From: an uncultured delta proteobacterium
Lineage (GTDB): Bacteria; Desulfobacterota; Binatia; UBA9968
NCBI GenBank assembly: GCA_963737905.1
Contig: CAVTUQ010000002.1
Coordinates: 224,001-288,000, forward strand
Length of the DNA stretch: 64,000 nucleotides
Reading direction: 5' to 3'
Position numbers and translations under genes: made by a program. Within the stretch, counting starts at the first letter, position 1. Every line of letters begins with the position of its first letter. This document shows positions 1,766-42,322 of this stretch, piece after piece. Below the pieces are notes generated by a model. The model did no database searches and had not been told where the DNA came from. It was given only the letters and a program-made list of their open reading frames with translations.

Positions 1766-2074
1766 ATGAAGACGAATCATATCAAAGTCGACCTCCCGAA
1801 GGAGAAGATTGCCGACTTCTGCCGTCGTCATCACATCCGCAAGTTGGCGGTGTTTGGCTCGGCGTTGCGCAAGGACTTTCGCCCCGACAGCGACATGGAC
1901 GTCCTGGTGGAGTTCGATCCGGGTCACACACCTGGGCTGGCATTTTTTGGGATGGAGCAGGAGCTTTCCGAACTGCTGGGACGAAAGGTAGACTTGAACA
2001 CACCGCAGTTTCTAAGTCCTTACTTCCGCGACAAGGTGCTTGCAGAGGCGGAGGTGCAGTATGCCGAGCCATGA
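1766..2074 (+). CDS. Minimal nucleotidyltransferase (MNT/MntA-type antitoxin)
   Basis: GS-x10-DxD motif [25 protein letters not shown] motif, 102 aa, overlaps a HEPN gene. Confidence 0.92.
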
Positions 2075-2405
2075 CACTAACGTACGGTTACGTCACATGC
2101 TCGATGCTGCGCGCGAGGCGGCGCAAATGGCGCAGGGCAAGACTCGCGCAGATTTGGATACTGACCGTCCGCTCAACCTTTCGTTGGTGCGGTTGCTGGA
2201 AATCGTCGGCGAAGCAGCGAGCCGTGTCCCGGTTAGTGAGCGCGCACAATACTCTGGCATTCCGTGGGTGCAAATCGTCGGCCTGCGCAACCGACTTATC
2301 CACGGCTACGACAACGTGGACTTCGACATTCTCTGGGAAATCGTCACCCAAGACCTTCCACCACTCATTGCAGAACTGGAGAGGATACTATCGTCGGAGC
2401 CGTAG
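2061..2405 (+). CDS. HEPN/DUF86 ribonuclease toxin (HepT-like)
   Basis: R-x4-H motif [16 protein letters not shown] and IPW motifs; overlaps end of MNT gene. Confidence 0.92.
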
Positions 2406-2477
2406 CCAAAACAACTTCGTCAAATACTAACCCGTCAAAACAAAGCAGCGAGCAGCAAGAAACGCGGAAGAAAAGTT

Positions 2478-12157: not shown

Positions 12158-12446
12158 TAGCTCCTCTGCTTTTTCTTGGCCCGTCCGGGTCCCGGTATGT
12201 TTTCCGAACTGCCTGCTTGATCGTAGCCGATCAGGGATTAGTGCCGTCAGCAAGTTTCTAGATGATCGCGGGTCTTGTAGGGTGATAAGATTTTCAGGTC
12301 AGACCGGCGCCGGACAGGCTGGACCCGGATCAACTTCCCTAAATACAACTATCCGACAAAGTGCTGTAAGTCAATTCAGAAACAAGGATTGTAATGATTG
12401 TTATCTCAGACACTAATCGGCCTGTAGATGCTGAGCCACAGATAAA

Positions 12447-13707: not shown

Positions 13708-14086
13708 GTCAAACCATCAACCTCTCTCGGTCGTTCTGGACGAAGGCAGTACTTTCTTAACCTGAATGTCAATTAGCGGAAACAATCGCTGAATAACGAA
13801 AAGCTAGCCAAGCCTTTAGATTGCGCTGTCGATGGACCGCAAAATACAAGACCCTCGGAGCGGAGTTAAAGGCAGGTTGCCGCCCCAACCCAACGGCGAT
13901 GACATCGGCGTCTGAACCCGTCAACTGTTTACAGGCGCATTGAGAAAGATACGCAAGATTAGAAAGCACGACCCCATTCAACTTCCCGCAACCATGAGCG
14001 CAACATTGACAGATGAGGAAGCTTAACACCGGTGCTTTTCGCTATTGAAGTTGATAGAACGAAGATTGGCCCGTCCGAGCAGGCAG

Positions 14087-14704
14087 ATGAAACCCGCGCA
14101 CTTCTCCATGCTACGCGCCTATCGTGCCGCCGATTTTTTCACTCTGGCTAACGGCGCGGCGGGAACCGGATCGATTTTCGCCGTCATAAGCTACGTGGAA
14201 GCGCCCGACCGCTGGCGGATCTACCTGGCTCTCTGCTTGGTGCCGCTTGCGCTATTGTTGGACATCGCCGATGGGCGAATCGCCCGGCGGCTGAACGAAC
14301 ATTCGCTCTTTGGCGGCGAGCTCGACTCTCTCGCGGATATCGTGAGCTTCGGCGTAGCGCCCGCGGTGCTCGCCTATGGGTTGGGGATGCGCGGCGGTCT
14401 CGACGTGGCTATCCTGTTGATTTTTGTGGCGTGCGGGATCAGCCGCCTGGCGCGTTATAACATTACCGCCGCCGAGATCGCCGCAGCCGGTGATAAGGTA
14501 AAATATTTTGAGGGAGCGCCGATTCCCTCGAGTTTGCTACTCGTTGCCGTGCTCGCCTTCTGCTTCCATCTGGATCTTGTCGCTGACAACTTTCCGCTTG
14601 GCGTGCTCGAAATCGCGTCCCTCCGCTGGCACCCAATCTCTTTACTTTATCTCGTGAGCGGCTCGGCCATGATCAGCAAGACGCTGCGGATTCCGAAGTT
14701 ATGA
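14087..14704 (+). CDS. pssA: CDP-diacylglycerol--serine O-phosphatidyltransferase-like (CDP-alcohol phosphatidyltransferase), copy 1
   Basis: DIADGRIARR...GGELDSLADIVSFGVAP, SRLARYN, YFEGAPIP; alternative TTG start 14045. Confidence 0.85.
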   Translation: MKPAHFSMLRAYRAADFFTLANGAAGTGSIFAVISYVEAPDRWRIYLALCLVPLALLLDIADGRIARRLNEHSLFGGELDSLADIVSFGVAPAVLAYGLGMRGGLDVAILLIFVACGISRLARYNITAAEIAAAGDKVKYFEGAPIPSSLLLVAVLAFCFHLDLVADNFPLGVLEIASLRWHPISLLYLVSGSAMISKTLRIPKL

Positions 14705-14822
14705 GCTGAGCAGTCAAAACTCGATCACCTGAATCCCGCGACCAGGACATAGGCGCGTGATTCTGAAAGATACGCAAGATTAGGAAGCCCGATCATCCCC
14801 CTGCCTTGATGAACTATGGCCT

Positions 14823-15150
14823 GCTTCAGACGAACTGTCCGAGGCGCTCGATAACCGTTGGAATAGCCCCACTTACTTGATGTCGTCCCGCTTATACAGG
14901 ATGCAGAACAAGTTGCGGCCGATCCGGCCAAAGCCCATCAAACCCACCTTTGTAGTCATTAAGTCCTATGCTTTTTCTTGACCTGTTCGGGTCCCGGTAA
15001 ATTTTTCCGAACTGACTGCCTGGCCGCAGCCGATCGAGGGATTAGTGCCGTCAGCAAGTTTCTAAGAGGATCGCGGGCTTGTAGGGGTGGTAAGATTTTT
15101 CACCAAACCGGCGTCGGACAGAGCAGTTGGACCCGGATCAATTTTCTAAG
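14823..15150 (-). pseudogene. Internally deleted relic of the gap operon, copy 1
   Basis: Matches 10137-10198 (3' end of gap) joined at ~14873 to 12070-12340 (5' end and upstream region of the Cys-less paralog). Confidence 0.9.
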
Positions 15151-15238
15151 TGTTTAAGTGGATTGCTCTCTACCTTAACACCGGTGCTTTTCGCTATTGA
15201 AGTTGATAGAAGGAAGATTGGCCCGTCCGAGCAGGCAA

Positions 15239-15856
15239 ATGAAACCCGCGCACTTCTCCATGCTACGCGCCTATCGTGCCGCCGATTTTTTCACTCTGGC
15301 TAACGGCGCGGCGGGAACCGGATCGATTTTCGCCGTCATAAGCTACGTGGAAGCGCCCGACCGCTGGCGGATCTACCTGGCTCTCTGCTTGGTGCCGCTT
15401 GCGCTATTGTTGGACATCGCCGATGGGCGAATCGCCCGGCGGCTGAACGAACATTCGCTCTTTGGCGGCGAGCTCGACTCTCTCGCGGATATCGTGAGCT
15501 TCGGCGTAGCGCCCGCGGTGCTCGCCTATGGGTTGGGGATGCGCGGCGGTCTCGACGTGGCTATCCTGTTGATTTTTGTGGCGTGCGGGATCAGCCGCCT
15601 GGCGCGTTATAACATTACCGCCGCCGAGATCGCCGCAGCCGGTGATAAGGTAAAATATTTTGAGGGAGCGCCGATTCCCTCGAGTTTGCTACTCGTTGCC
15701 GTGCTCGCCTTCTGCTTCCATCTGGATCTTGTCGCTGACAACTTTCCGCTTGGCGTGCTCGAAATCGCGTCCCTCCGCTGGCACCCAATCTCTTTACTTT
15801 ATCTCGTCAGCGGCTCGGCCATGATCAGCAAGACGCTGCGGATTCCGAAGTTATGA
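15239..15856 (+). CDS. pssA: CDP-alcohol phosphatidyltransferase (PssA-like), copy 2
   Basis: Protein identical to copy 1 from the ATG; alternative TTG start 15197. Confidence 0.85.
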   Translation: MKPAHFSMLRAYRAADFFTLANGAAGTGSIFAVISYVEAPDRWRIYLALCLVPLALLLDIADGRIARRLNEHSLFGGELDSLADIVSFGVAPAVLAYGLGMRGGLDVAILLIFVACGISRLARYNITAAEIAAAGDKVKYFEGAPIPSSLLLVAVLAFCFHLDLVADNFPLGVLEIASLRWHPISLLYLVSGSAMISKTLRIPKL

Positions 15857-15974
15857 GTTGAGCAGTCAAAACACGAGCACCTGAATCCCGCGACCAGGAC
15901 ATAGGCGCGTGATTCTGAAAGATAAGCAAGATTAGGAAGCCCGATCATCCCCCTACCTTGATGAACTATGGCCT

Positions 15975-16249
15975 GCTTCAGACGAACTGTCCGAGGCGCT
16001 CGATAACCGTTGGAATAGCCCCACTTACTTGATGTCGTCCCGCTTGTACAGGATGCGAGAACAAGTTGCGACCGATGCGGCCGAAGCCCATCAAACCCAC
16101 CTTTGTGGTCATTAAGTCCTATGCCTTTTTTTTGGCCTGTTCGGGTCCCAGTAAGTTTTTCTGAACTGACTGCCTGGCCGCAGCCGATCGAGGGATTAGT
16201 GCCGTCAGCAAGTTTCTAATAGGATCGCGGGCTTGTAAGGGGTAATAAG
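15975..16249 (-). pseudogene. Internally deleted relic of the gap operon, copy 2
   Basis: Same junction GAATAGCCCCACT|TACTTGATGTCG as copy 1. Confidence 0.88.
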
Positions 16250-20305: not shown

Positions 20306-21538
20306 CTATCCGACCGCCCGCACCTCCTGCCGCCCAAACTCGGCATCAGCCGCCTTTTTGAAATCCTCCTCCTTGAAGGAGTAGAGTCCAGCGCCTCCAA
20401 GAAAAATCTTCGCGGCTATCTCTCTCGGCACGTTCTGAAGCAGGTTGCTTGAGACGTTGGGGAAGTTGGAGTCGAAGTGGGGATAGTCCGTCGAAATACA
20501 CATGTGATCGGCGCCAATGAGGCTGGCCGTGGACGCGATCTCGGGTTCGCTGCCCTCGACTGCAGCCCAGCAGTTGCGTTGAAAGTACTCCTTGGGTGTC
20601 AAGGACAAGTAGGGCGCATGGGAATCCCGGTAGTTCGCATAGTCCCACTCGATGCGGCTGAGCAACCCAGGCACCCACGAGTTCTGCGCCTCCAGGTAGC
20701 CCACCCGGAGCTTGGGGTGGAACTCGAAAACCCCGGAGATGATCTGCGCGATCAAGGCCTGCTGCATCTCGATCCAATGGCTGGCAACGTGCCGGTAAAA
20801 CCGGTTCTCCCCATAGAGCTCGTTCATGTGGGAGTACCAGGCGCCCGTCCCCTCATGGAAGCACCAGGCGACGTCGAGCTCCTCATGAAGGCTGTACAGG
20901 GGATCCCAGTAGTTCGAATGCCAGTAGTGGCCGTTTAGCAGGTTAGGGCGAATAAACGAAGCCACCGCGCCCAGTTCACGAACACAGCGCACCAGTTCCT
21001 GGCAGGCCAGGTTGACATCATGTAGTGGAAGCATGGCAGCGAATTTTAATTGGTTGGGACTGTGCTGGCAGAACTCGTGGATCCAATTGTTGTAGGCCTG
21101 GCTCAGGGCCAGGGAGAGTTGTGGGTCCATTCCGTTCCGAGAAAGGAGGCTGAGACCACCGGTAGGGAACAGGACCGCGATATCGATTCCTTCCATTTGC
21201 ATCCCCATGATTTGGGCTTCGGCGTCATAATCTCGCTCGATGGCGAAGCGCAACCGCCCTGTCGCAGCCGAGCGGGAGGCCGATAGCTGACCCGTGGCAC
21301 TCCCGATAATAGGGCCACTGGCACGCGATGATGCGGGCTTTTTGCGGTGTTGCTGCAGCTCCACGTCCATGGAGGCGGGCAAGCCATCGATGTTCCACGA
21401 CCGGCGGCTTAGTTTCCCGTCCGCGCCTACTGCCGACGTGACCCGGGACTTGAAGGCCGGGTCCAGGTACTTCTCAAAAATATCTCCCGGCTCCTGGACG
21501 TGCATGTCACTGTCTACGAACCTCAGTCCTTCTTTCAT
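20306..21538 (-). CDS. Amidohydrolase_2-family protein
   Basis: DSDMHVQEP, AYNNWIHEFC, CFHEG, VGYLEAQNSWVP, STDYPHFD. Confidence 0.9.
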   Translation of the reverse strand: MKEGLRFVDSDMHVQEPGDIFEKYLDPAFKSRVTSAVGADGKLSRRSWNIDGLPASMDVELQQHRKKPASSRASGPIIGSATGQLSASRSAATGRLRFAIERDYDAEAQIMGMQMEGIDIAVLFPTGGLSLLSRNGMDPQLSLALSQAYNNWIHEFCQHSPNQLKFAAMLPLHDVNLACQELVRCVRELGAVASFIRPNLLNGHYWHSNYWDPLYSLHEELDVAWCFHEGTGAWYSHMNELYGENRFYRHVASHWIEMQQALIAQIISGVFEFHPKLRVGYLEAQNSWVPGLLSRIEWDYANYRDSHAPYLSLTPKEYFQRNCWAAVEGSEPEIASTASLIGADHMCISTDYPHFDSNFPNVSSNLLQNVPREIAAKIFLGGAGLYSFKEEDFKKAADAEFGRQEVRAVG

Positions 21539-21934
21539 GGCATCCTCCGTTTCCGCTGTTAATGGGTTACAAACTCACGAAAGCTTCAACGTCGCGCGCG
21601 CATGTCGTGTCACATATGATTTTGATTGAATAGTGCGGCAGCAGAAAACTAGCACCATCCCTCGAAAAATTTCCGCTTACACTCTTCCGAAATAACCGGA
21701 GTGATTCAATCAAATAAGGTGGTCTTATGTCAACCGTTACAAATAGCACGGTGTAAAGCCACGTGCGAAGTCTAACAGGGTTTCGGAGACAGGAGGTTAC
21801 AGATAATGGCATCAGGGATAAAAGGCAAACTTGAGTGGATGGTAAATTCTTGAGGGGATAGCTAAGCATTGCGTTTTGGACCCGGCGACTAAAGGGTCTC
21901 GTTAAAGCGTTGGATCTAAACGATGGCCAAGAAC

Positions 21935-22200
21935 CCAATCAAAATCCCAATCAGCGCCTTTAACAAGACGCATCTTGCAACCCTCAATCGCGCCGTAAAT
22001 CCAAGCTTCCCTTAATCGTGACTCAACGCGTGAAGGCCTGCTGCGGTCTTGCTGAGTGTAAACGCTTACCAAAAGGGCGAGCAAGAACGTAAGATCCTCA
22101 AACTGCTAGCTCTGGGTGAGAGAGAGATCGCCGTTGGCGAAGGATATGATCTTGACGACGTATTGGCTGAAGCTGACGTGTTCTCTCGAAAGCGTGAGAG
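21935..22200 (+). pseudogene. Degraded Phd/YefM-family antitoxin
   Basis: Frameshifted RKSKLPLIVTQR then AVLLSVNAYQKGEQERKILKLLALGEREIAVGEGYDLDDVLAEAD, typical Phd core and C-terminus. Confidence 0.65.
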
Positions 22201-22275
22201 TACGAGGTGCTCAATGAATCAAGTGAGAAGGGGCGAGTGTCGAGTGTCGCGTGGATCGAGACAAAAGAAAAATAC

Positions 22276-22674
22276 ATGAAGAGAAAAATAACGGTCCTTA
22301 CCCTTTGCGCTATGCTCTTTGCGCTTTGCTATTCTGCGTCGGCGCAGCAGCCGAAGAAAGTCCCGCTGATAGGGTATCTATCGAACGGCGTTCCAGCTAC
22401 TGAGTCCACCCGTGCCGAGACAATTCGGCTGGCTCTGCGCCAGCTTGGTTACATAGAAGGACAGAACATCGCCATCGAGTACCGATATGCGGAGGGGAAG
22501 CGTGATCGGTACCCTGAGCTTGCGGACAGAATCCTGAAGGGAGCCAAGCCTGCCGATCTGCCGGTGGAGCAGCCGACAAAGTTCGAGCTGGTGATTAATC
22601 TCAAGACGGCGAAGCAGATCGGCCTGACGATTCCACAGTCTATGCTGTACAGAGCGGACAAAGTGATCAAGTGA
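22276..22674 (+). CDS. COG2984-type substrate-binding protein with a large in-frame internal deletion (132 aa)
   Basis: [13 protein letters not shown] fused directly to [19 protein letters not shown] at ~22524. Confidence 0.8.
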
Positions 22675-22797
22675 GAAGAGGGGTGAGTGACGAGTGGAAA
22701 GAGTAGAGAAAAACATGAAGTAAATCGACTGTAAATCTGGTGCATATCAGCACTAGACTTGCCAAATTATATGCAATTCGGCAATATACTTGCCGAA

Positions 22798-23939
22798 ATG
22801 TATAAACGAATCTTCAATATCCGGGAAACTGTCAAGCAGAAGTCTCTGTTCCTCTTTGGCCCGCGCCAGACCGGTAAGAGTACTCTGGTGCGTCAGAGCT
22901 TTCCCGATGCCGCCTATTACGATCTTCTCGAAGCCGACACATTTCGCGAGCTGAGCGCCCGTCCAGAGTATCTGCGGCAAACCCTCAGCCCCCAGCAATC
23001 ATTAGTCATCGTCGACGAGATCCAAAACTCCCTGCCCTTCTGGATGAGATTCAACTATTGATCGAACGGAACAAGAAGTTGCGAGTCATTCTAACCGGAA
23101 GCAGCGCTAGAAAACTCAAGCGAGGAGCCGCCAATCTTCTCGGCGGACGTGCCTGGGTCTGCCGCCTGCATCCGCTTGTGTCGGCGGAGCTGGATGGCCA
23201 AAGATTACTCCATCGTCTCAATCGCGGGAGTCTCCCGTCGATCATTGATTCCGAGCACTACAAGGAAGACCTTAAAGCCTACGTGGGCACGTATCTACAG
23301 GGAGAGATCCGCGCTGAGGGATTGACCCGCTCCATTGAGAATTTTTCCCGTTTTCTTGAGGTCGCCGGACTTACGAGTGGTGAGCAGATTAATTTTAGTT
23401 CAGTAGCTGCCGACGCTGGATTCCCGCCAAGAACGGTGCGAGAACACTACCAGATTCTCGAGGACACGCTGGTTGGACACCAGCTCCCGGCCTATCAAAA
23501 GACTGCCAAGCGTAAGCCGGTGGCCACCGCCAAGTTCTACCTTTTTGATGTCGGTGTCGCCAACACGCTCAAGCGAATACCCGGGATTGAAGAGGGTTCC
23601 AACGCCTACGGTCACGCCTTGGAACATCTCATTTTTTTGGAACTTCGAAGCTATCTGGATTACCACAGGCTGGATCATGAGCTCACCTATTGGCGCAGCC
23701 GCTCTCAGTTCGAAGTGGACTTCCTGGTGGGAGACCAGATCGGAATTGAAGTGAAATCAAAGGCGCGGGTATTGCCTCGCGATTACAAAGGACTTAGCGC
23801 TCTAAGCGAGGAAGTTCGACTGAAGCGAAAGATCGTAATCTGTGCGGAGAAGATGCGGCGCCGGGCCGACGATGGCACAGAGATCATGCCGGCAACGCTT
23901 TTTCTCAAAGAACTGTGGGCGGGCGATTTAATTCATTGA
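22798..23939 (+). CDS. AAA+ ATPase with DUF4143 (COG1373-like), one frameshift at ~23025
   Basis: GPRQTGKST, VIVDEIQ, LTGSSARKL, KFYLFDVGV, YWR..EVDF..IEVK nuclease-like C-terminus; one A missing in an A-run would restore DEIQKLP. Confidence 0.88.
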
Positions 23940-24161
23940 TTCATAGCAACCCCAACGCTCGTGTGCAAGACTCAACTGTTAAGCCAAGCAAAGATTTCTC
24001 CCTTCGAATTCAAGGATTTTATCCTGCTTGACAGGTGAACCACTCGCTGGTCTATAGTCCGACGTGAAAGAGAATCATCGCTCTTGATCCAACGAAAATG
24101 AACAGACCAATCTTTATCTCCCAGGGGGCGAGTGTCGAGTTGTAAGAGAGAGCAGGGAAAA

Positions 24162-25152
24162 ATGAAGAGAATAATCAGCGTCCTTACCCTTTGCGCTTTG
24201 CTCTTTGCGCTTAGCTATTCCGCCTCGGCGCAGCAGCCGAAGAAAGTCCCTCGGATAGGCTATCTATCGAGGAGCGATCCAGCTCGTGAGTCCACCCGTT
24301 CCGAGCTAATTCGGCTGGCTCTACGCGAGCGTGGCTACATAGAAGGACAGAACATTGCCATCGAGTACCGATATGCGGAGGGGAAGCGCGATCGGTTCCC
24401 TGAGCTTGCGGCCGAGCTGGTGCGTCTCAAGGTCGATATCATCGTGGTAGCAGGAGGGAACAGGCCAACCCGGGCGGCCAAGAATGCGACCAAGACGATT
24501 CCCATCGTTATGACGGGCCTGGGGTCGATCCGGTCGAGGCAGGCCTGGTTGAAAGCCTTGCCCGTCCCGGCGGCAACGTCACCGGCATTACACTCCTTGC
24601 CGGAGAACTAGGTGGGAAGAGGCTGGAGCTGCTCAAAGAAGCGGTTCCCAAACTTGCCCGTGTCGCGGTTCTCTACGATCCGGCCACTTCGTCCACTGTA
24701 CACGAGGTGAAAGAGGTACTTCCAGCCGCGGCGCGCGCACTGGGGTTGACTATTCAGCCTTGGAGGTACGAGGTGCGGACGGTTTCGAGAAGGTATTCGC
24801 TGCGCTAAACAAGGAGCGCCCGGATGGACTCTACGTGTCCTGGGGCCCGCTAATGCTTGCTAACCGAAAACGGATCGCGGGCCTTGCGTTAAAGAGCCGG
24901 TTACCTTCGATGTACGTCAGGAGAGAATTTGTAGATGCCGGCGGGCTCATGTCCTACGGCGCGGACTTCGCGGACAGCTACCGGCGCGTCGCATATTTCG
25001 TGGACAAAATCCTTAAAGGCGCAAAACCAGCCGATCTCCCGGTGGAGCAGCCGACGAAGTTCGAATTGGTGATCAACTTGAAGGCAGCGAAGCAGATCGG
25101 CCTGACGATTCCGCCCAATGTGCTGGCGAGGGCGGACAAGGTAATTCAATGA
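24162..25152 (+). pseudogene. COG2984-type substrate-binding protein, frameshifted
   Basis: ORFs 24162-24611 and 24760-25152 plus a middle piece together give the full-length paralog. Confidence 0.85.
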
Positions 25153-25247
25153 TGGCAGAAAACCAAGCAGCGATGCCAGGATTGAACTGAATTCTCCATC
25201 TATCAAAACTAAGTCCCGTTTGTTGTCGTCCGTATTCAGTCCTAGAA

Positions 25248-25368
25248 CCGGAGCTAGTGGCACAGATCGAGTTCACCGAATGGACGCCGGACGGTCACCT
25301 GAGACATTCGAAGTTTGTCGGGTTGCGAGAAGACAAGAAGGGCGCGGAAAGTTGTCCGGGAGGATTAG
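25248..25368 (+). pseudogene. C-terminal OB-domain fragment of ATP-dependent DNA ligase (LigD-like)
   Basis: Translates PELVAQIEFTEWTPDGHLRHSKFVGLREDK. Confidence 0.75.
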
Positions 25369-25385
25369 ACGGCTCGTCTATCCAG

Positions 25386-26127
25386 TTACGGATTCTTCTC
25401 GTTCTTCCCTACGACCACCGTGTAGAGAGATAGCTTGGAAAGCTTGTAGATGTCTTCCACGTTAAACTCTGTCGCTTCCAGAAAAGGCTCCAATTTCAGT
25501 TTAGTGCGCCAGCCGAGGTGGCGTGTAACGGGATCGAGCGCCTCCGTTAGCGGGCCAAAAATGGGTAAGTCCGTTGTAAAGTGGTTGACGATCACGATTT
25601 TGCCTCCTGGACGGCAAACGCGCTTGGCCTCAGCCAGCATGCGAATAGGATCCGGAACTACCGTGACCGTATGAAAGGCTGTGACATAATCGAAGCTGTT
25701 ATCGGCAAAGGTTAAATTGAGCGCATCCATTTCGATGACTTGTAAATGAGACCAGTTGTTTGTCGCGATTTTCGCACGTGCCTGGGCGAGCATATCCGCC
25801 GCCAAATCAATGCCAATAACCTTGGAATGGCGCGGGTAGGCCGGAAATGAAGTGCCGGTACCTACGCCGAGTTCAAGCACTTGCGCTCCGGGTGGAATGT
25901 TTAGCGACTCGATCACCTGTCTTATCTGATCATAAAAGATCTTGCCGAAGGTCTTGTCGTAAAGCAGAGCGTACTCTGAGTAAAGCCTGCTCTCGTGGGC
26001 CTGTGGACGATTTCTTTTCCGTCTCGGCGCAAGGCTCCGGATGTTCTTGATGCCACTTCTTAGTTCCCTCAGCTCTTTTGGAAGAGTTCTTTTTACTTTT
26101 TCACGAAAATTCTTGCGAAGCTCCATA
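25386..26127 (-). CDS. Class I SAM methyltransferase (PmtA-like phospholipid N-methyltransferase)
   Basis: YALLYDKTFG, VLELGVGTG, GIDLAADML, KRVCRPGGKIVIVNHF; start uncertain (up to 26195). Confidence 0.8.
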
Positions 26128-26227
26128 GCGTCCATTTTTCTGTCTGTAGGCATTCCAAACGTAACTTGCGCAAAGCGAGAGTTTGTATTCCTCACTCGTT
26201 GTCCATCTTCCGTCTAGGCCGTGAAAA

Positions 26228-26371
26228 TCAGCGAACCGATGGTTCTAACTTCTCCACCTTCTCAAGCTCAAGGGCCAAATCGTAAAGCTCTTTTATGATT
26301 TTCTTGTCGTGTGTCTCGACTAACCTACGGCTCAGTTCATCCATCCGTTCTTCTATCTCTTGAAGGGTCAT
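26228..26371 (-). CDS. Small hypothetical helical protein (47 aa)
   Basis: MTLQEIEERMDELSRRLVETHDKKIIKELYDLALELEKV, amphipathic pattern. Confidence 0.45.
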   Translation of the reverse strand: MTLQEIEERMDELSRRLVETHDKKIIKELYDLALELEKVEKLEPSVR

Positions 26372-26556
26372 AATCATAAAAAAGGAATAATCCTTTGAAC
26401 AGAGGTTGTCTTGACATTGGGCGACATTCTCTTGACACCTCAACGGTGTCCTGGGTTGAAGGGGCAAGAGATTGAACTGAATTCTCCAACGAACAAATCC
26501 TGTGAGATTTGCCTGCGGCAGGCTGATTCTGGCCTTCCCACTCAACTAATCCCTAT

Positions 26557-26616
26557 CGCCTTTCGCCGTGTAAATCACACTTTCCTTTATCTCTATCCGC
26601 GTGATACATAACGCTC
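26557..26616 (+). promoter_or_regulatory. Conserved ~60-bp upstream element of COG2984 genes (also 27890-27948, 29873-29930, 31250-31308)
   Basis: CGCCTTTCGCCGTGTAAATCACA-pyrimidine tract-CGTGA(T/G)ACATAACGCTC recurs four times, always ahead of a paralog. Confidence 0.65.
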
Positions 26617-26629
26617 GAAACGAGGTGCT

Positions 26630-27586
26630 CAAAAGAACTGCGGCGCCATCAATTGGTTGTAGTGGTGTTGCTTGCTTTGGAGTGATAGCGAGGCGAGCAG
26701 CGAGAAAATCCAGGATAGGTTTCCTGGGTGTGACCTCCCTTCACATACAGCTCGTCTTGATGCATTCGACAGGGTCTTCGCGATCTCGGCTATGTGGAAG
26801 GCAGAATATCATCATTGAATATCGCTATGCGGATGGAAAATTGGATCGCGTTCCGCCCTCGCGGCCGAACTGGTGCGCCTCAACGTTGACGTCATCGTCA
26901 CGGGCGGTTCAGCGGCACCGCCCCGCTAAGGAAGCGACGGCGACTATTCATTGTAATGGCACAGGATAGATCAGTTGGCAACGGATTGTCGCGAGCCTGG
27001 CGCGGCCGGGCGGGAATATTACGGGACTGTCCATTGTGGCGCCGGAACTGAGCGGCAAACAACTGGAGCTTCTGAAGGAGACTGTTCCCGAGCTTTGGCG
27101 CGTGGTCGTCCAAGCAATCCCAACGAGCCGAGTTATATGCAATTGCGAAAAGAGACGGAACTCGCGGCGAAAGCGCTCAAAATACAAATTCAATTTTTAG
27201 ACGCACGCAGTGCTAAGGATGTTGAACCGCATTCGTGAGGCAACCAAGAGGCGCGCTGACGCAGTTCTCGTACCGACCATGCCGATCGTTGCCTCCCAGC
27301 GGGCACAGATCGCCGATCTCGCGGTCAAAAACCGCCTTCCGGCGATGTACGGGCAGCCGGAGTATGTGGACGTTGGTGGTCTGATGTTTTACGGTGCCAG
27401 TATTACCGATTTGTTTCGTCGCGCCGCCACTTACGCGGACAAGATTCTCAAAGGCGCTAAGCCTGCCGATCTTCCCGTGGAGCAGCCGATCAAGTTCGAG
27501 TTCATCATAATCTGAAAGCCGCGAAGCAAATTGGCCTGACCATTCCGCCGAACGTGCTGGCGAGAGCGGATAGGGTTATTAAATAA
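26630..27586 (+). pseudogene. COG2984-type substrate-binding protein, heavily frameshifted
   Basis: [54 protein letters not shown] in different frames; many single-base deletions. Confidence 0.85.
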
Positions 27587-27646
27587 TTTCGGATTGCGAA
27601 TTTCGAATTTCGGATTGAGAGGAATAACAATGCGGCAAGTTCGGAT

Positions 27647-27806
27647 CGACGGCTTGAACGCTTTCCAAACTCGGGAAGGCATTTGCCGGAGTTTCCAGAG
27701 TTACCGCATCGAGAGGTCATCGTTTGGCCTTACCGTTTTTTCTATCGGCAGCAGGGGGAAAACAATGGGTCGTTGCTGTCTGGCACGGTGCGCAAATCCC
27801 CAAAGT
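27647..27806 (+). pseudogene. C-terminal fragment of RelE/ParE-family toxin, copy 1
   Basis: RLERFPNSGRHLPEFPELPHREVIVWPYRFFYR. Confidence 0.75.
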
Positions 27807-28018
27807 TCCCTCGGGCAGCTAACACGCCGCTCAAACCTGCTGCGGGTCATTTTTGGGAGAACTCCGGCCTTCCTACGTCACGACTACCGTCGCCTTTCGC
27901 CGTGTAAATCACATTTTTCTTTATCTTATCCACGTGAGACATAACGCTCTAAAGAGGGCGCTGAATCAAGTGAGAAGGGGCGAGTGTTAAGTGACGAGTG
28001 GCGAGAGCAGAGAAAAAT

Positions 28019-29011
28019 ATGAACAGAAAAATCACCGCCTTTACTCTTTGCGCTATGCTCTTTGCGCTTTGCGGCTCAGTTGACGCGCAACAGACGGGAA
28101 AAGTCTTTCGCATCGGCATCCTGGATCCGACCACTGCTTCCGGTAGTGCCGTCGTTTGGGAAACGTTGCGACAGGAACTCAGCAAGCTTGGATGGATCGA
28201 GGGAAAGAATATCGCCATCGAGTACCGGTTTTCAGAAGGAAAAACTGAGAACCTACCTGAGCTTGCGGCGGACCTGGTTCGTCAAAAGGTTGATCTAATT
28301 GTGACCTCAGGGGTACCGCCGGCATTGGAAGCCAAGAAAGCGACCTCGACCATCCCCATCGTGATGGCAGCCGCTCTTGACCCTGTGGCTTTAGGTCTGG
28401 TTGCCAGTTTGGGGCGGCCGGGAGGCAATGTCACCGGGCTCGCGACTTTAGGGCCCGAGCTAAATACCAAAAGGCTGGAGATACTCAAGGACATAATCCC
28501 CAAGCTCGCCCGAGTTGGACTGCTGCGGCGGCCGCCGGGAGTTAACGTTGGGCAAGACCTCCAACTGAAAGAGCTCAGGCTTGCGGCTCTGGCGCTGAAG
28601 CTAAAATTGGAGGAGATCGACACTCAACTCGACGCCAAAGGTTTGGAGAGCGCCTTTCAAACCGCGAAGCAGAAACAGGTCGGTGCGATTATGACGACCG
28701 CCCTTCGCGTCTTTTTCGCCGAAAGGAAGCGAATCGTCGAGCTTGCCACAAAACACCGGTTGCCGGCGATTTACGGCCGGAAGGAGTTCGTGGATGAGGG
28801 TGGCCTTATGTCCTATGGGGAGGACTCCATTGACCAATATCGGCGGGCGGCCGGTTACGTCGACAAGATTTTGAAGGGTGCCAAGCCCGCCGATCTGCCG
28901 GTACAGCAGGCAACGAAGTTTGAGTTCGTGATCAACTTGAAGGCAGCGAAACAGATCGGTCTGACAATTCCACCTGACGTGTTAGCGCGGGCGAATAAAG
29001 TGATCAAGTGA
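28019..29011 (+). CDS. COG2984-type ABC substrate-binding protein (intact)
   Basis: Signal peptide, [57 protein letters not shown]. Confidence 0.92.
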   Translation: MNRKITAFTLCAMLFALCGSVDAQQTGKVFRIGILDPTTASGSAVVWETLRQELSKLGWIEGKNIAIEYRFSEGKTENLPELAADLVRQKVDLIVTSGVPPALEAKKATSTIPIVMAAALDPVALGLVASLGRPGGNVTGLATLGPELNTKRLEILKDIIPKLARVGLLRRPPGVNVGQDLQLKELRLAALALKLKLEEIDTQLDAKGLESAFQTAKQKQVGAIMTTALRVFFAERKRIVELATKHRLPAIYGRKEFVDEGGLMSYGEDSIDQYRRAAGYVDKILKGAKPADLPVQQATKFEFVINLKAAKQIGLTIPPDVLARANKVIK

Positions 29012-29944
29012 TGGAAAAAACCAAGCAGCGGTGGCGGAGTGAATTGAATTCTCCTCACAAATACTGCGGGTCACAGTGATTTGAATGCAATGATGAAAGA
29101 CGTGAGTACTATTTGGTGCGACGTTTTTGTTTGACGCTCTTGAAGGGCCTGCAGGCGCTTGATGGCTCTGCTCGACATTCACAACATGCCAGGATAGAAA
29201 ACGACACCTCTCGACAGGCCGGACAAGTTAGGTGGCCACAGAGTAAACATCTTACTTTAAAAGAGGCCACTCTGGTCGCTTGCTCATTTTTGAATCCGGC
29301 TATTCTTAGTTTCATTGCCGCTATCGTGAGTTTGAGCGGTCATCAGGGGATGTAGACGAATGTTACGCCGCCGATTAGAGGGCCGCGCTCTTTGTTTTCC
29401 TTGAGCAAGATTCTTAGTATTGGATGCGGACTTTACTCTCTCAATCTCTTCTGACATCCTGCTTTAACTCAACGATTTCTTTCTTCTGGGTTCATAGGGG
29501 ACTCCAAATCGCAGATCCCTCAAACTCTGCCCCAATTTGCTCAAGGAACAGTCGATGACTACGGAGACCGCCAATTTTTTCTTGAAAGATTCCATCAAAG
29601 CCCACTCCTCTAGTCACAAATAGTAGATCACCTTTGGCGCAAAGATGATGCCGGGTAAAGTCGTCACGTCTTGTACTGAAGTAGCCTTAGATGGAAACTC
29701 TTCTACCGGGTCTTGCCAGTCGTGAGGGAGACGTTTGACAACTTGACAAAAGCCGGGACTCGGAAGACTGAAATGAATTCCCCGACCTAACCAGTTCACT
29801 TCTTGTTCAACTGACGCGCCGTACAATTCAATCTCAGGCTGATTCTGGCCTTCCCACTCGATGAACTCCTGTCGCCTTCCGCCTTGTAAATCACACTTTT
29901 CTTTATTTCCGTCCGCGTGATACATAACCTCGAAGAGGTGTGCA

Positions 29945-30942
29945 ATGAAGAAGAGCTGGTCTGTCATCAATCCTGGTTGCAGTGGTACTGCTTGCTGTTG
30001 TGGTCATAGCCGAGGCGCAGCAGCCAACGAAATTCCCCGGCTAGGACGCCTAAGCTCCTGGCTCCCCGTCCGCTTAACACGGCCCGCATCGAGGCATTCC
30101 GCCAAGGTCTGCGCGAGCTTGGGTACGTCGAGGGGAAAAACATTGTCATCGAAAGGCGATCTGTAGAGGGAAGACTCGATCGCCTCCCCGCGCTCGCGGC
30201 CGACCTAGTGCGTCTCAAGGTCGACATCATCGTCACGGCTGGTCAGCCAGCAACGCGCGCCGCCAAAGAAGCAACTTCGACGATTCCCATTGTCATGACG
30301 CAATGATGACGATCCTGTTGCCAACGGGTTCATCGCCAGCCTTGCGCGACCCGGCGGGAACATTACTGGATTGTCCACGCTTTGCCCCGGAGCTAAGCGG
30401 AAAACAACTGGAGCTTTTGAAGGAGATCGTTCCTACGCTATCCAGCGTGGCCGTCCTGGGGACTTCGACCGTCCCCAAGCAACGTGCTAATGCGTAAAAG
30501 AGATAGAACTCGCCACACGAGGCGTTTGAAAGTGAAGTTTCGATTCCTAGACGTACAAAATCCCGAGGAAATCGAGAGCACATTCCGAGCCATAAAAAAG
30601 GAGCGTGCTGAAGCAGTCCTTTTGCTGAGTGGACCGGACCTTTGGCTTCTCAGCGAACACAGATTGTAGACCTCGCGGTGAAGAACCAACTTCCGGCGGT
30701 GTACCCCTCTTTAGATTTTGTCCAAGACGGGGGGCTTATGAGCTACGGCACGAACTATGCACGACTTAGACCGGCGCGTCGCTACCTATGTGGATAAAAT
30801 CCTGAAAGGCAGAAAGCCCGCTGACCTGCCAGTAGAACAGCCAACGAAGTTCGAGCTCGTCGTCAATCTGAAAGCCGCAAAGCAGATCGGCTTGACGATT
30901 CCGCCGAATGTGCTGGCGAGGGCGGATAGGGTTATTAAATAA
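29945..30942 (+). pseudogene. COG2984-type substrate-binding protein, frameshifted
   Basis: GAGGTG RBS plus ATG; LSGKQLELLKEIVP and [28 protein letters not shown] in different frames. Confidence 0.85.
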
Positions 30943-31002
30943 TTTCGGATTGCGAATTTCGAATTTCGGATTGAGAGGAATAACAATGCGGCAAGTTCGG
31001 AT

Positions 31003-31165
31003 CGACGGCTTGAACGCTTTCCAAACTCGGGAAGGCATTTGCCGGAGTTTCCAGAGTTACCGCATCGAGAGGTCATCGTTTGGCCTTACCGTTTTTTCTA
31101 TCGGCAGCAGGGGGAAAACATATGGGTCGTTGCTGTCTGGCACGGTGCGCAAAATCCCCAAAGTT
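31003..31165 (+). pseudogene. C-terminal fragment of RelE/ParE-family toxin, copy 2
   Basis: RLERFPNSGRHLPEFPELPHREVIVWPYRFFYRQQGENIWVVAVWHGAQ. Confidence 0.78.
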
Positions 31166-31392
31166 CCCTCGGGCAGCTAACACGCCGCTCAAACCTGCTG
31201 CGGGTCATTTTTGGGAGAACTCCGGCCTTCCTACGTCACGACTACCCGTCGCCTTTCGCCGTGTAAATCACATTTTTCTTTATCTCTATCCACGTGAGAC
31301 ATAACGCTCTAAATGAGGTGCGCGCTGAATCAAGGGAGAAGGGGCGAGTGTCGAGGGTCGAGTGACAAGTGGATCGAGACAGAGAGGAGCAG

Positions 31393-32379
31393 ATGAAGGA
31401 AAAAATTAGGGTCCTGACGATATGCGCCATGCTCTTTGCGCTTTGCCCGTCCGCCGAGGCGCAGCAGCCGGGAAAAGTCTTTCGCATCGGCATCCTGGAT
31501 CCGACCACTGCTTCCGGTAGTGCCGTCGTTTGGGAAACGTTGCGACAGGAACTCAGCAAGCTTGGATGGATCGAGGGAAAGAATATCGCCATCGAGTACC
31601 GGTTTTCAGAAGGAAAAACTGAGAACCTACCTGAGCTTGCGGCGGACCTGGTTCGGCTAAAGGTTGATCTAATTGTGGTCTCGGGGGGGCCACCGGCGTT
31701 AGCGGCCAAGAGCGCCACCACAACAATCCCCATCGTGATGACGACCTCTGGAGACCCCGTAGCTCAGGGTCTGGTTGCCAGTCTAGGGCGGCCGGGAGGC
31801 AATGTTACCGGGCTGTCGAGTTTAGTGCCTGAGCTAAATAGCAAGAGGCTGGAGATCCTCAATGATGCAGTCCCCAAGCTTGCCCGAGTTGGATTTTTGC
31901 GGCCGTCGAGAAGCGGGTTAGGAGACCTCTCAATGAAGGAGATCAGGCCTGCGGCTCTGGCACTGAAGGTAAAATTGGAGGAGATCGAGACTCAGGTCGA
32001 CGCTAAAGGCTTAGAGAGCGCCTTTCAAACCGCAAAGCAAAAGCAGGTCAACGCGATTATGGTGACCGCCGGTCGCACCATTTTTGGCGAACGAAAGCGG
32101 ATCGTCGAGCTTGCTGGCAAATACCGTTTGCCGGCCATTTACTTCCAGAAGGAGTTTGTCGATGAGGGCGGGCTGATGTCCTACGGGGTGGATTTCGATG
32201 ATCTCTATCGGCGCGCGGCTGTTTACGTGGACAAGATTTTGAAAGGTGCAAAACCGGCTGATTTGCCGGTGCAGCAGGCAACCAAGTTTGAATACGTCAT
32301 TAACCTTCAGGCGGCGAAACAGATCGGTCTGACACTCTCGCCGGAATTTCTCTCGCGGGCGAATCGGGTGATTAAATAG
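31393..32379 (+). CDS. COG2984-type ABC substrate-binding protein (intact)
   Basis: Same motifs as 28019-29011; GAGGAG RBS. Confidence 0.92.
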   Translation: MKEKIRVLTICAMLFALCPSAEAQQPGKVFRIGILDPTTASGSAVVWETLRQELSKLGWIEGKNIAIEYRFSEGKTENLPELAADLVRLKVDLIVVSGGPPALAAKSATTTIPIVMTTSGDPVAQGLVASLGRPGGNVTGLSSLVPELNSKRLEILNDAVPKLARVGFLRPSRSGLGDLSMKEIRPAALALKVKLEEIETQVDAKGLESAFQTAKQKQVNAIMVTAGRTIFGERKRIVELAGKYRLPAIYFQKEFVDEGGLMSYGVDFDDLYRRAAVYVDKILKGAKPADLPVQQATKFEYVINLQAAKQIGLTLSPEFLSRANRVIK

Positions 32380-32579
32380 CCCAAAGGCAATGGGCAACGA
32401 GAATGATGCGGTAGAATACTTTTTTCGAGTGACAAGGGGAGTGTTGGGAGGTCGAAGTCCACTCGATTCGGCACTTTTAAGGAATGTCTGGGGCCTGATA
32501 TATTTGAGTTTGTCGGGCAGAACGTAACGCGACGCAGATACTTCAGTCAGTCGAAATTGAAGTAGAAGGAATCGTAGTC

Positions 32580-32795
32580 ATGGCTAAAGCCGCCAAGCGA
32601 CCAAATGGAAACTACATCGAAGCTGGTTACAAGGATAAAATTGTTTTCAGGCGTAAGAAGTCGCTTAAAGCTAGTCGTACTGTCGTGGCAAGCTGGCGGA
32701 GAAGCCAGGGCCTTTGGGCCGCGCATCCTGTGTTCCAGGGTATGACCGTTCGAGAGGTCGTCGAGTGGCTCAGGGGCGAGGACCGTGGCGTTTAA
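32580..32795 (+). CDS. Putative antitoxin partner of the PIN toxin
   Basis: 71 aa, overlaps the PIN gene start; GLW...EVVEWLRGE C-terminus resembles VapB tails. Confidence 0.6.
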   Translation: MAKAAKRPNGNYIEAGYKDKIVFRRKKSLKASRTVVASWRRSQGLWAAHPVFQGMTVREVVEWLRGEDRGV

Positions 32796-33228
32796 GATTA
32801 GCCGCGATTCAAGCGTCATCATTTCTCACCTGTCAGGCGATATTCACAAAGACGACGTGCTTGCCTGCGTCGATCGGTTAGCATCGAGCAGAGTCGAGGT
32901 ATTCATGTCGCTGGTCTGCTACGCCGAGGTATGGACTGGGATTGAGCTACAAGCCAAAGACAACGCGGCCCGCGCGGCAGTGGAACTACAGCGGTTACTC
33001 CAGGCAAGTGGCATCATGCTAGTTGCCGACAACGTCTCGATTGCTCGGGACGCGGCCAGAGCCCAGGCCGACTACAGACGTCACGGCGGTCGTCGCGAGG
33101 TCTTGATTCCGGATTTTCTAATCGGAGCCAATGCGGCCCACTATTCAGGCCGTTTGCTCACCACCAATCCCCGGGACTTTTTTGGAAATTTTCCTCGGCT
33201 CAAAGTGGTTACGCCAAAACTTTCTTGA
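32785..33228 (+). CDS. PIN-domain (VapC-like) ribonuclease toxin
   Basis: DSSVII, YAEV, LIPDFLIGANA, LLTTNPRDF acidic tetrad. Confidence 0.88.
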   Translation: MAFKISRDSSVIISHLSGDIHKDDVLACVDRLASSRVEVFMSLVCYAEVWTGIELQAKDNAARAAVELQRLLQASGIMLVADNVSIARDAARAQADYRRHGGRREVLIPDFLIGANAAHYSGRLLTTNPRDFFGNFPRLKVVTPKLS

Positions 33229-33267
33229 CCGAAGGCGGTGTTTAAGAATCATCAATTCTTCATAAGA

Positions 33268-33340
33268 CTGAAAACCGTCAAACAGATTGGAGTGACGATT
33301 CCGCCGAATGTATTGGTAAGAGGGGATAAGGTCATTAAAC
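33268..33340 (+). pseudogene. 3'-terminal remnant of another COG2984 gene
   Basis: Translates LKTVKQIGVTIPPNVLVRGDKVIK. Confidence 0.8.
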
Positions 33341-33504
33341 AATTTTGGATTGGGCTTGGGGCGACAAAAACATGACCAAAACATTTTCGAGCCGACTTCC
33401 GGCCTCTTCGTCCGACAATCGGAAATCTATGAATCGTAAAATCAATTTTCCCGCCAACGGCTTTCTCACTTCTCACTGATGCTCTCGCGTCCGCGTCTCA
33501 CGGC

Positions 33505-33785
33505 CATCTGTAGGCACGCTGAGTAGCGATATTGCTTGCCGGGGATTTTGTTATTCGGCGCCGTCATAGAATTTACCGAGACGTCGCGGGGATCGCTTCG
33601 AGTTGTGATCTAAGGTAGCGGCGTATCTCCGGTTATCCCGGATGAAGGCACGAATCATCTACTATTGAATCGAGAAGTGGGTGCCTCATAAGCGGTGCCA
33701 GTTCCATCGAGCTGCGCTTCAGGTTCAAAGCGAACCACCATAACGCCTGCGTTTAGCAGTTCGTCGGTATCAAATCCGGGGCATG
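33505..33785 (+). repeat. Diverged direct repeat of 36380-36660
   Basis: Shared blocks CCCGGATGAAGGC.CGAATCATC, CCATCGAGCTG.GCTTCAGGTTCAAAGCGAA, CAGTTCGTC.GTATCAAATCC.GGGCAT. Confidence 0.85.
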
Positions 33786-36329: not shown

Positions 36330-36530
36330 TCGAGACTTGGATTCACAGATTATCGATATATCGGCTGTCGTCGAGGGCCATCTTTAGGCATGCCAAGTCG
36401 GGATATTGTTTGCCGAAGATCTGTGGTTTGGTGGCGTCATAGGATTTACCGGGACGTCGCGGCAATCGCTTAGAGTTTTGGTCTGACGTGACGAGGATGA
36501 TCTACGAGTTACCCCGGATGAAGGCGCGAA

Positions 36531-36821
36531 TCATCGTGTTTCGAATCGAGAAGTTGGTGCTTCATGATCGGTGCCTGTGCCATCGAGCTGTGCTTCAGGT
36601 TCAAAGCGAAACACCGTAATGCCTGCTTTGGTCAGTTCGTCAGTATCAAATCCTGGGCATTTCTGAATCGTAATGGTTTTTTCTGCAAAATTGCCGCGAC
36701 TTTCGGTGTTCACCAGTGCTTGAATCTGCTCGGGCGAAGGCTCCTGGTTGTGTTCGGCAAAGAAACTTTTTCTCGATTTGGAGCTGGCATGTTTTTTCCT
36801 GTAGCTGACTAAAAAAAGCAT
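36531..36821 (-). CDS. Hypothetical protein (96 aa)
   Basis: AAGGAGGTGA RBS before ATG 36821; a decayed copy of its 3' half lies at 33650-33785. Confidence 0.6.
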   Translation of the reverse strand: MLFLVSYRKKHASSKSRKSFFAEHNQEPSPEQIQALVNTESRGNFAEKTITIQKCPGFDTDELTKAGITVFRFEPEAQLDGTGTDHEAPTSRFETR

Positions 36822-42111: not shown

Positions 42112-42143
42112 TAAAAAAACCCCTACTTCTCACGAAGTAGGGG
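42112..42143 (-). terminator. Intrinsic terminator, expression platform of the fluoride riboswitch
   Basis: Minus strand CCCCTACTTC-GTGA-GAAGTAGGGG-TTTTTTT, overlapping the aptamer 3' end. Confidence 0.9.
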
Positions 42144-42192
42144 TCATCAATCCGCCCGGGCGGATGGTTTACACGGCGAACCCCATCGCCTC
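42135..42192 (-). ncRNA. Fluoride riboswitch (crcB motif)
   Basis: Minus strand GGCGATGGGGTTCGCC-GTGTAAACC-ATCCGCCCGGGCGGAT-TGATGACCCCTAC, upstream of DUF190-CBS/crcB. Confidence 0.93.
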
Positions 42193-42322
42193 TACAGTTA
42201 TCCTGAAACTACCGCATCCGCAGTCGACTTGCAATGCCAGCGAAGCCGCATATAGCCGCCTCGCGTACGCCCGCGCCTCTAGCGGTTGACCCACCAAGGC
42301 AAGATGGGTAGATTAGAAACCC

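Follow-up and report, generated by a model that had tools for sequence, protein, structure and literature searches.

Chromosomal integrons encode a tyrosine recombinase, IntI, by the array, and their cassettes are bounded by imperfect inverted repeats, the attC sites; stabilisation of the array by toxin-antitoxin (TA) modules has been proposed for them. In Bordetella, dozens of Bug/TctC binding-protein paralogs are encoded per genome without adjacent transporter genes. TA islands are described, in the pertinent part of the paper by Makarova, Wolf and Koonin (2009, PMC2701414), as close TA pairs of different classes, for which preferential incorporation in one chromosomal region is the suggested cause. 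The locus considered here resembles each of these systems in part. It is an array of ABC_sub_bind (PF04392, COG2984) binding-protein genes interleaved with TA genes and other cargo, and it lies in a 64,000-nt stretch of DNA from an uncultured delta proteobacterium (GenBank assembly GCA_963737905.1, contig CAVTUQ010000002.1, positions 224,001 to 288,000), referred to below as the window. A literature search turned up nothing on TA genes in PF04392 arrays, TA islands being known as a class.

The locus is probably a birth-and-death array of redundant orphan binding-protein genes, at the same time a TA island and a plasticity hotspot, of a kind typical of Binatia-like soil bacteria. In such an array units would be duplicated in tandem, copies would exchange segments by gene conversion, and many of them would end as pseudogenes or stubs. 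The spaces between the copies would be settled by small selfish genes (TA pairs of types II and VII, a PDC-S01-type ATPase, a ligase), mostly on the array's strand, inserts being tolerated presumably because the paralogs are redundant. The settled cargo would then be duplicated, truncated or deleted through recombination between paralogs, an erosion that would leave most of it as relics, and neither a dedicated recombinase nor attachment sites would be involved. This reading draws on what is directly observed, namely the anatomy of the array, the duplication and mosaicism of its units, its recurrence in other genomes and its lack of integron parts.

Seven PF04392 copies follow one another on the plus strand between 22264 and 33339 (tblastn with c4 and c6; Pfam), and a further copy, c0, lies outside the array:

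c1: 22264-22671, plus strand, copy with an internal deletion, residues ~5-95 being fused to ~273-337 (tblastn; Pfam C-terminal match)
c2: 24147-25149, plus strand, PF04392 pseudogene across three reading frames (tblastn)
c3: 26673-27583, plus strand, degraded pseudogene with stops and a frame change, 35% amino acid identity to c4 (tblastn)
c4: 27998-29011, plus strand, intact PF04392 gene of 337 amino acids (Pfam E = 3.4e-50, 171 bits)
c5: 29945-30939, plus strand, degraded pseudogene with start and body in different frames and several stops (tblastn, Pfam)
c6: 31369-32379, plus strand, intact PF04392 gene of 336 amino acids (Pfam E = 3.1e-47, 162 bits)
c7: 33253-33339 (with trailer to 33352), plus strand, the last 29 codons, residues 309-337 (tblastn; motif family D6)
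c0: 2463-3445, plus strand, frameshifted PF04392 copy in two frames (tblastn)

An earlier note on this DNA, made from the letters alone, had placed six COG2984 paralogs and a 3' remnant on one strand, and its positions and descriptions proved accurate by tblastn and Pfam. It had called the copies intact, frameshifted, deleted or mosaic, which is borne out, though only two of the seven in the array, c4 and c6, are intact; one is internally deleted, one frameshifted, two are badly broken and one is a stub. The frame change of c2 near 24515 is a 2-nt indel and no homopolymer slip. The stub c7 shares 78-80% nucleotide identity with the ends of c3 and c5, while c0, which directly follows a MNT-HepT pair, is 84.5% identical to c2 over 975 nt. 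There is no complete ABC importer operon, and no permease or ATPase gene lies among the copies, as the note had also said: Pfam matched neither an ABC permease (PF02653) nor an ABC ATPase (PF00005) gene between 21.5 and 33.9 kb, where 76 open reading frames (ORFs) of at least 55 amino acids and 120 stop-to-stop segments were scanned (elsewhere in the window, 114 ORFs).

Both intact copies match PF04392 over its full length and above its cutoff of 25.9 bits, and share 79.6% amino acid identity; c4 has the PDB relatives 3lkv (1.3e-34), 3lft (7e-27) and 6hni. Against the TrpX equivalog (NF041285) c4 and c6 score 136 and 146 bits, below the NCBIfam cutoff of 390, and are therefore only distant TrpX relatives. 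Their overall ratio of nonsynonymous to synonymous substitution (dN/dS) of 0.26 means that both are still under purifying selection; positive selection is ruled out by the same ratio, the top 40-codon window reaching 0.66. The N-terminus of c4 reads as a signal-peptide-like segment, and c4 and c6 may still be secreted binding proteins that feed a transporter or sensor encoded elsewhere. The array resembles the Bug/TctC case in its expanded orphan binding-protein paralogs. However, the family here is PF04392, the copies stand in strict same-strand tandem arrays, pseudogenisation is heavy and selfish genes are interleaved.

In a tree of 135 intact foreign copies and those of the window, c0, c1 and c2 group together, c4 and c6 form a second subfamily, and c3 and c5 fall in others, c3 having the intact copy L014_12102 as its nearest relative. 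Each subfamily is nearer to foreign relatives than to some of the home copies. Since the subfamilies, three in number, are common to other genomes, the paralog types are older than the species.

Recombination has left a trace in the middle of the array, where a whole unit is repeated. Its parts, apart from the binding-protein copies themselves, are:

26519-26672, plus strand: long leader of c3, the same leader standing before c5 at 29835-29944
27584-27997, plus strand: spacer 1, with a heptamer junction (27585-27616, TRF period 7), a ParE relic and a chimeric leader with a binding-protein 3' stub
27587-27904, plus strand: ParE relic 1, a C-terminal fragment (Pfam E = 0.02)
30940-31368, plus strand: spacer 2, a copy of spacer 1, with ParE relic
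30943-31263, plus strand: ParE relic 2, a C-terminal fragment (Pfam E = 1.1e-7)

In a self-BLAST, 26519-29007 matches 29835-32375 at 79% over 2557 nt. The repeated unit consists of the long leader, a degraded copy, the spacer with the ParE relic and an intact copy (c3-c4 and c5-c6). The two spacers are 97.8% identical over 412 nt, and as the unit was duplicated with its spacer, the two ParE fragments are one relic copied. The cargo list of the earlier note, all items of which are present, has to be amended in this respect, since it had counted two fragments.

Identity along the unit is uneven and ranges from 52% to 100%: c3 and c5 share 52-80%, the ~420-nt spacer 95-100%, and a ~100-nt patch at the leader and signal-peptide start 58-72%; ~240 nt inside c4 and c6 are 85-100% identical, and the remainder of these two genes is mostly at 70-88%, with 60% in the last window. 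As none of c3, c5 and the ParE relic is functional, one duplication followed by even divergence cannot explain such a profile; a later conversion tract, ending inside the binding-protein genes, is needed. Between c4 and c6 the longest identical run is 187 nt (957 aligned columns, 164 differences), and dS is 0 in codons 41-80 and 1.1-1.2 in codons 241-320. The nearest relative also switches along the gene, c4 being closer to the copy of a related locus (L001) in columns 406-540 and c6 in columns 676-855, with c4 and c6 identical early on. In a maximum chi-square test of c4 and c6 against the closest foreign copies, the observed value was reached in none of 1000 permutations. This mosaic identity points to gene conversion among copies. 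Homologous recombination among the paralogs, which the earlier note had postulated, is demonstrable, and within the window the ParE relic moved by co-conversion together with parts of the flanking genes. Same-strand copies, pseudogenes, segmental duplication and mosaic identity, the marks of a tandem paralog array shaped by birth and death and by gene conversion, are all found here.

The same tract bears on the explanation favoured by the earlier note, in which the binding-protein gene with its leader and trailer would serve as a platform that captures foreign cargo by homologous recombination and shuffles binding-pocket segments, TA modules stabilising the whole; cargo would then also move between arrays and genomes. 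A spacer that is 95-100% identical between units whose flanking genes share 52-88%, with conversion ending inside those genes, is what such a platform would produce. However, no first capture of any cargo was observed, and the data are equally those of copying and deleting cargo that is already in place. That the copies recombine and that the ParE relic was co-converted stands; the capture of new cargo is conjecture, and we consider the explanation as a whole doubtful.

Cargo and other sequences between the copies, and the gene pair before c0, are as follows:

22034-22276, plus strand: Phd/YefM antitoxin relic, C-terminal half (Pfam PF02604 E = 3e-3, 17.7 bits, below cutoff)
22735-23936, plus strand: AAA_14 and DUF4143 ATPase pseudogene with one frameshift near 23030 (Pfam)
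25191-25430, plus strand: fragment of a LigD-type ATP-dependent DNA ligase, last ~32 residues (PF04679 E = 5e-10)
25386-26195, minus strand: class I S-adenosylmethionine-dependent methyltransferase, intact (Pfam Methyltransf_11, 1.5e-22)
29009-29834 (826 nt): sequence without annotation that follows c4 and has no counterpart after the second unit
32580-32795, plus strand: putative VapB of 71 amino acids, overlapping the VapC start by ~10 nt
32785-33228, plus strand: PIN/VapC (Pfam PIN 1.1e-10; NCBIfam VapC 26 bits, below cutoff)
1766-2074, plus strand: MNT (Pfam NTP_transf_2 7e-14; PADLOC candidate PDC-S09)
2040-2405, plus strand: HepT (Pfam HepT-like 5.6e-24)

Six of the seven cargo items lie on the plus strand, with the array. 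Two units look intact, the methyltransferase and the VapC pair, and five are relics. The Phd relic aligns with residues 35-86 of an intact Phd in the related locus L070 (BLASTP E = 8e-7). The AAA_14-DUF4143 pseudogene matches the PADLOC family PDC-S01 (5.7e-44) and has 37.5% amino acid identity to an intact gene at L015:7446-8648; the PADLOC matches concern candidate families only, and the PDC-S01-type gene is frameshifted. Over 34 residues, the ligase fragment has 70.6% amino acid identity to the C-terminal end of a ligase that is intact and lies in a gap of the L024 array. The methyltransferase, which the earlier note had counted with the defence-type cargo, is an intact gene, but its best NCBIfam match is PmtA (phospholipid N-methyltransferase; 127 bits, below cutoff); it looks metabolic rather than defensive and is not a DNA methylase. 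The VapBC pair of the note is likewise recovered as a PIN/VapC gene with an overlapping upstream ORF, but this putative VapB matched no Pfam, NCBIfam or PADLOC family. The pairing of MNT-HEPN with a COG2984 gene at 1.7-3.5 kb is confirmed by Pfam and tblastn: MNT and HepT form a type VII TA pair directly 5' of c0 (NCBIfam MntA/HepT matches below cutoff), with 72% and 58% amino acid identity to a pair that adjoins a binding-protein gene in L027. As to the stretch after c4, Pfam gave no match at E<=0.05 except a weak, below-cutoff one at chance level, and the compared loci hold no relative of it except for a 55-nt trailer and one 31-nt match.

The Phd relic, the ParE relic in its two copies and the VapC pair place at least two close TA loci of different classes within 11.5 kb, and in having several TA classes within 12 kb the locus resembles the TA islands as far as the relevant part of their description goes (PMC2701414). 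Compared with that same part, it differs in that the scaffold is a tandem binding-protein array, that cargo is copied with the units and that most of the TA genes are relics. Dedicated capture of cargo and stabilisation of the array by TA modules are conjecture. The VapBC pair alone looks intact inside the array, which speaks against the platform and makes any present-day TA stabilisation at best weak.

For comparison with relatives, 74 loci (L001-L074) were taken from a scan with c4 of one genome per species, the window's own genome not being among them. All are from metagenome-assembled genomes (MAGs), with a best amino acid identity to c4 of 79%. Their titles are mostly Candidatus Binatia, uncultured delta proteobacterium, Deltaproteobacteria and Syntrophobacter(aceae), with few others such as Verrucomicrobia. 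They hold 247 copies or fragments, 246 of them on the query's strand, with up to 15 copies in 21 kb. The gaps between copies (n=210) are bimodal: 154 are shorter than 250 bp, 53 measure 250-5000 bp with a mode at 700-1500 bp, and the other 3 exceed that range. Broken copies are numerous, standing to intact ones as 40 to 89 in short-contig MAGs and as 80 to 46 in MFD MAGs. Nearly all arrays are orphan, an ABC ATPase standing beside the array only in L011 among 46 sampled flank regions. No synteny with the flanks of the window was found in the 74 loci.

This recurrence also bears on the possibility of an assembly artefact. Dispersed paralogs could have been misjoined and near-identical tracts produced by consensus collapse, the more so as repeats of 240-420 nt at 97-100% identity confuse short-read assemblers, the source is uncultured and its closest relatives are all MAGs. 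However, 74 independent loci, some of them on contigs of 0.1-1 Mb, are built in the same way, every copy is linked by unique sequence, and the rest of the window has long intact genes, so that such an artefact is hardly credible.

In six loci (L042, L067, L070, L007, L030, L059) an Amidohydro_2 gene lies directly 5' of a single PF04392 gene, and in several (L042, L070, L016, L051, L058) a molybdopterin hydroxylase gene lies 3' of it. These neighbours form a conserved catabolic setting, which may hint at the class of ligand.

The 53 wide gaps, 64.5 kb in all, supplied 105 ORFs for a Pfam scan, and 300 ORFs from 46 of the 96 flank regions, picked at random (236.8 kb), served as control. TA modules occur in 12 wide gaps (PIN in 4, HEPN and/or MNT in 5, ParE, MazF and DUF433 with DUF5615 in 1 each), and two of the PIN genes are accompanied by Phd and HicB/CopG. 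AAA_14/DUF4143 or Uma2 is present in 4 gaps, a transposase, a reverse transcriptase, or an integrase with IS91 in 4, and an intact DNA ligase in one (L024); the other ORFs comprise, by our count, roughly nine ordinary genes and ~67 without a Pfam match. In the flanks there were 8 TA modules, of which 5 lay no further than 1 kb from a binding-protein copy; a single TIR gene was seen, and no transposase. Counted per junction, TA modules number 12 in 207; the flanks, counted per ORF of 100 amino acids or more, give 3 in 216 (odds ratio 4.4, p=0.013). For all selfish classes together the figures are 20 in 207 and 4 in 216 (odds ratio 5.7, p=4e-4). The pairing of TA/defence genes with PF04392 that the earlier note had proposed from this window thus recurs in other genomes. 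Per kb of whole array span, all classes are 3.2-fold enriched over flank more than 1 kb away (p=0.017). The 46 kb of array edge hold 5 TA modules, the 191.5 kb of flank beyond them 3 (p=0.009). An NitT/TauT control could draw on only ~10 NMT1-NMT1 junctions in the sampled flanks by our count, too few for comparison. The association of cargo with arrays is supported but moderate.

In relatives, too, cargo follows the array's strand (10 of 12 TA modules and 3 of 3 AAA_14 genes). This co-orientation and the enrichment at junctions and array edges are both what a platform for cargo would lead one to expect. The same orientation and closeness, together with the conserved ~170-nt leader before some copies, could also reflect a functional coupling in which TA/defence genes are regulated with the binding-protein genes or act on them, for example as stress control of uptake. 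Against this the cargo is heterogeneous (PIN, HEPN/MNT, ParE, MazF, Phd, DUF433/DUF5615, ATPase, nuclease, transposases), most of that in the window is dead and no consistent partner emerges; we hold such a coupling to be very unlikely.

Further evidence on the platform comes from the structure of the wide gaps and from pairs of genomes. The idea of a slot, in which cargo would have a heptamer junction at either end, was rejected: of 50 wide gaps, 0 had a strong junction at both ends, 6 only on the left, 9 only on the right and 35 at neither. Moreover, 38 of the 53 wide gaps lie between complete gene ends, as simple intergenic residence predicts. A binding-protein 3' stub after every cargo was also rejected: stubs occur in 10 of 53 wide gaps and 9 of 154 tight ones, an enrichment (p=0.008) that concerns a minority. 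What does favour movement is the AAA_14-DUF4143 gene of L033 and L040, which is 92.2% identical over 1213 nt while the flanking binding-protein genes share 67-72%. Stronger purifying selection on the cargo could also give 92% against the 86% of the best binding-protein gene, and is an alternative cause of the higher identity of cargo across genomes.

Several ORF families without a Pfam or PADLOC match recur in gaps: one at L014:2384-3793, L015:1454-2056, L025:11143-11610 and L041:11057-11812, another at L052:872-1501 and L062:11298-11913, and a third at L006:2667-3335 and L041:14174-14710. No relative of these families was found in the window.

A number of points weigh against the reading of the locus as a birth-and-death array in which cargo resides. 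Some of the breaks in the MFD MAGs, whose assemblies we take to be long-read, may be sequencing errors. The comparison covers other species only. TA modules alone, counted per kb of the whole array span and set against flank more than 1 kb off, are 2.6-fold enriched, which is not significant (p=0.10). The events are few, and loci of one MAG or of related species are non-independent; in L021 and L027, for example, the HEPN cargo looks orthologous. Two genome pairs have their most similar stretch, among the sequence compared, in the cargo: 92.2% against 86.5% for the best binding-protein gene in L033/L040, and 91.2% against 82.3% in L014/L015, where the cargo is an ORF without assigned family. 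These pairs are no more than suggestive of a transfer of cargo between genomes that would go beyond passive residence.

With respect to integrons, the array is, as the earlier note had it, free of an integrase, and it has no attC-like site. No ORF scanned in the window matched the tyrosine recombinase family PF00589. No recurrent inverted repeat was found at cargo borders in 21500-33400 with pairs up to 140 nt apart; of the 15 inverted-repeat pairs in this region, the sole recurring one lies inside the coding sequence of c4 and c6. Likewise, the window contains no tRNA, and no integration site was found. What the locus has in common with chromosomal integrons and superintegrons is co-oriented small cargo, including TA modules, between repeated sequences. 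In contrast to them, it shows no IntI, attI or attC, its repeat is a whole gene of ~1 kb, and movement, where seen, is by homologous recombination. A bolder proposal is that PF04392 arrays are an integrase-free cassette system across Binatia-like bacteria, in which gene-length homology and heptamer junctions would copy TA and defence genes among positions, arrays and genomes and addictive cargo would guard the direct-repeat arrays against collapse by recombination; we judge this unlikely.

If the pattern extends over whole genomes, the TA and defence genes of this little-studied soil phylum would have, in tandem arrays of redundant binding-protein genes, a recognisable landing pad and a means of being copied. 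Integrons, and defence hotspots between core genes, would then have a counterpart that works without a recombinase. Uptake specificities would also turn over fast in these arrays. Annotators of such MAGs are warned that many of the PF04392 "genes" there are pseudogenes or stubs.

The shared leader and trailer motifs reported in the earlier note are real (families D6, D11, D14, D15, D19). A leader 16-mer has 4 matches in the array at up to 1 mismatch; outside the array there is one more, at 42163, with 3 mismatches. The number expected is 0.55. The long leader of c3 and c5 (~170 nt) is 72-88% identical at the nucleotide level to leaders in 10 other loci and carries an invariant CGTGAT ~35 nt 5' of the start codon. 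A structured RNA was rejected, RNAalifold giving no pairs on 19 leaders and Rfam no leader match at gathering thresholds; in view of this lack of a consensus fold, the leader is taken to be promoter or operator DNA. A minus-strand gene was rejected as well, for want of a long open frame, the tblastn matches being explained by the 72-88% nucleotide identity. Sigma-70 promoters were rejected too, a scan giving 4 sites where 8 are expected. Before c1, c4 and c6 the leaders contain the last binding-protein codons (ATCAAGTGA) and a tight-junction spacer, and they are what is left of an older gene-to-gene junction.

A comparable remnant follows c1:

22672-22724, plus strand: heptamer-repeat junction after c1 (lag-7 match 0.61), similar to the c4 leader (D18)

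Read in the sequence, the c1 stop is followed by this junction, which closes with ATGAAG-TAA, and then by the AAA_14 gene. ATGAAG-TAA represents the first two codons of a lost next binding-protein copy. That a junction and two such codons lead directly into the AAA_14/DUF4143 gene again agrees with a platform for cargo.

Spacers between tandem binding-protein genes, in the window and in the tight junctions of the 74 loci, consist of 3-5 tandem 7-nt units, the unit varying by junction class (CGAGTGT, TTTCGGA, CAGCGGT, CAGGCAA and others). In the window such stretches lie at 22675-22715, 27585-27616, 30941-30972, 22227-22270, 27974-28015 and 31338-31380. Over 101 junctions the lag-7 match comes to 0.49, compared with 0.27 for 144 intergenic stretches taken as controls; it is at least 0.6 in 44 of the junctions and 6 of the controls. 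Some long junctions have complementary repeats downstream as well. Intergenic tandem heptamers are on record, in the parts of these reports that concern them, as TAACTGA in Beggiatoaceae and cyanobacteria (PMC4679880) and as elements of Geobacter metallireducens (PMC2700814). To that extent, the Beggiatoaceae and Geobacter repeats share with those described here the 3-5 tandem 7-nt units just 5' of start codons and a role that is unknown, possibly regulatory; they differ in that here the unit varies by junction class and the repeats separate tandem paralogs. A repeat of period 7, CTTTGCG in 3-4 copies, also occurs within the signal-peptide coding region of c1, c2 and c4 (22303-22330, 24189-24216, 28044-28073).

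The window as a whole (G+C ~55%) is ordinary chromosome, with complex I genes, ribBA, an HrpB helicase, two GAPDH genes and a fluoride riboswitch with crcB. The riboswitch (42131-42199, minus strand; 43.7 bits), the sole Rfam match in the window, lies 5' of a run of DUF190/CBS, CBS and CrcB genes. Close to the array, an apparently non-coding repeat of ~285 nt (33502-33784 and 36376-36660, 80% identity) brackets NMT1 binding-protein and Amidohydro_2 genes. A CDP-alcohol phosphatidyltransferase gene is present as a tandem duplicate (14022-15094 and 15174-16249; 97.8% over 1076 nt), near which a segment of ~270 nt is repeated three times at ~87%, also at 12070-12336. The two GAPDH genes are tandem paralogs on the minus strand (10140-11225 and 11141-12253), with 66.5% nucleotide identity over 499 nt.

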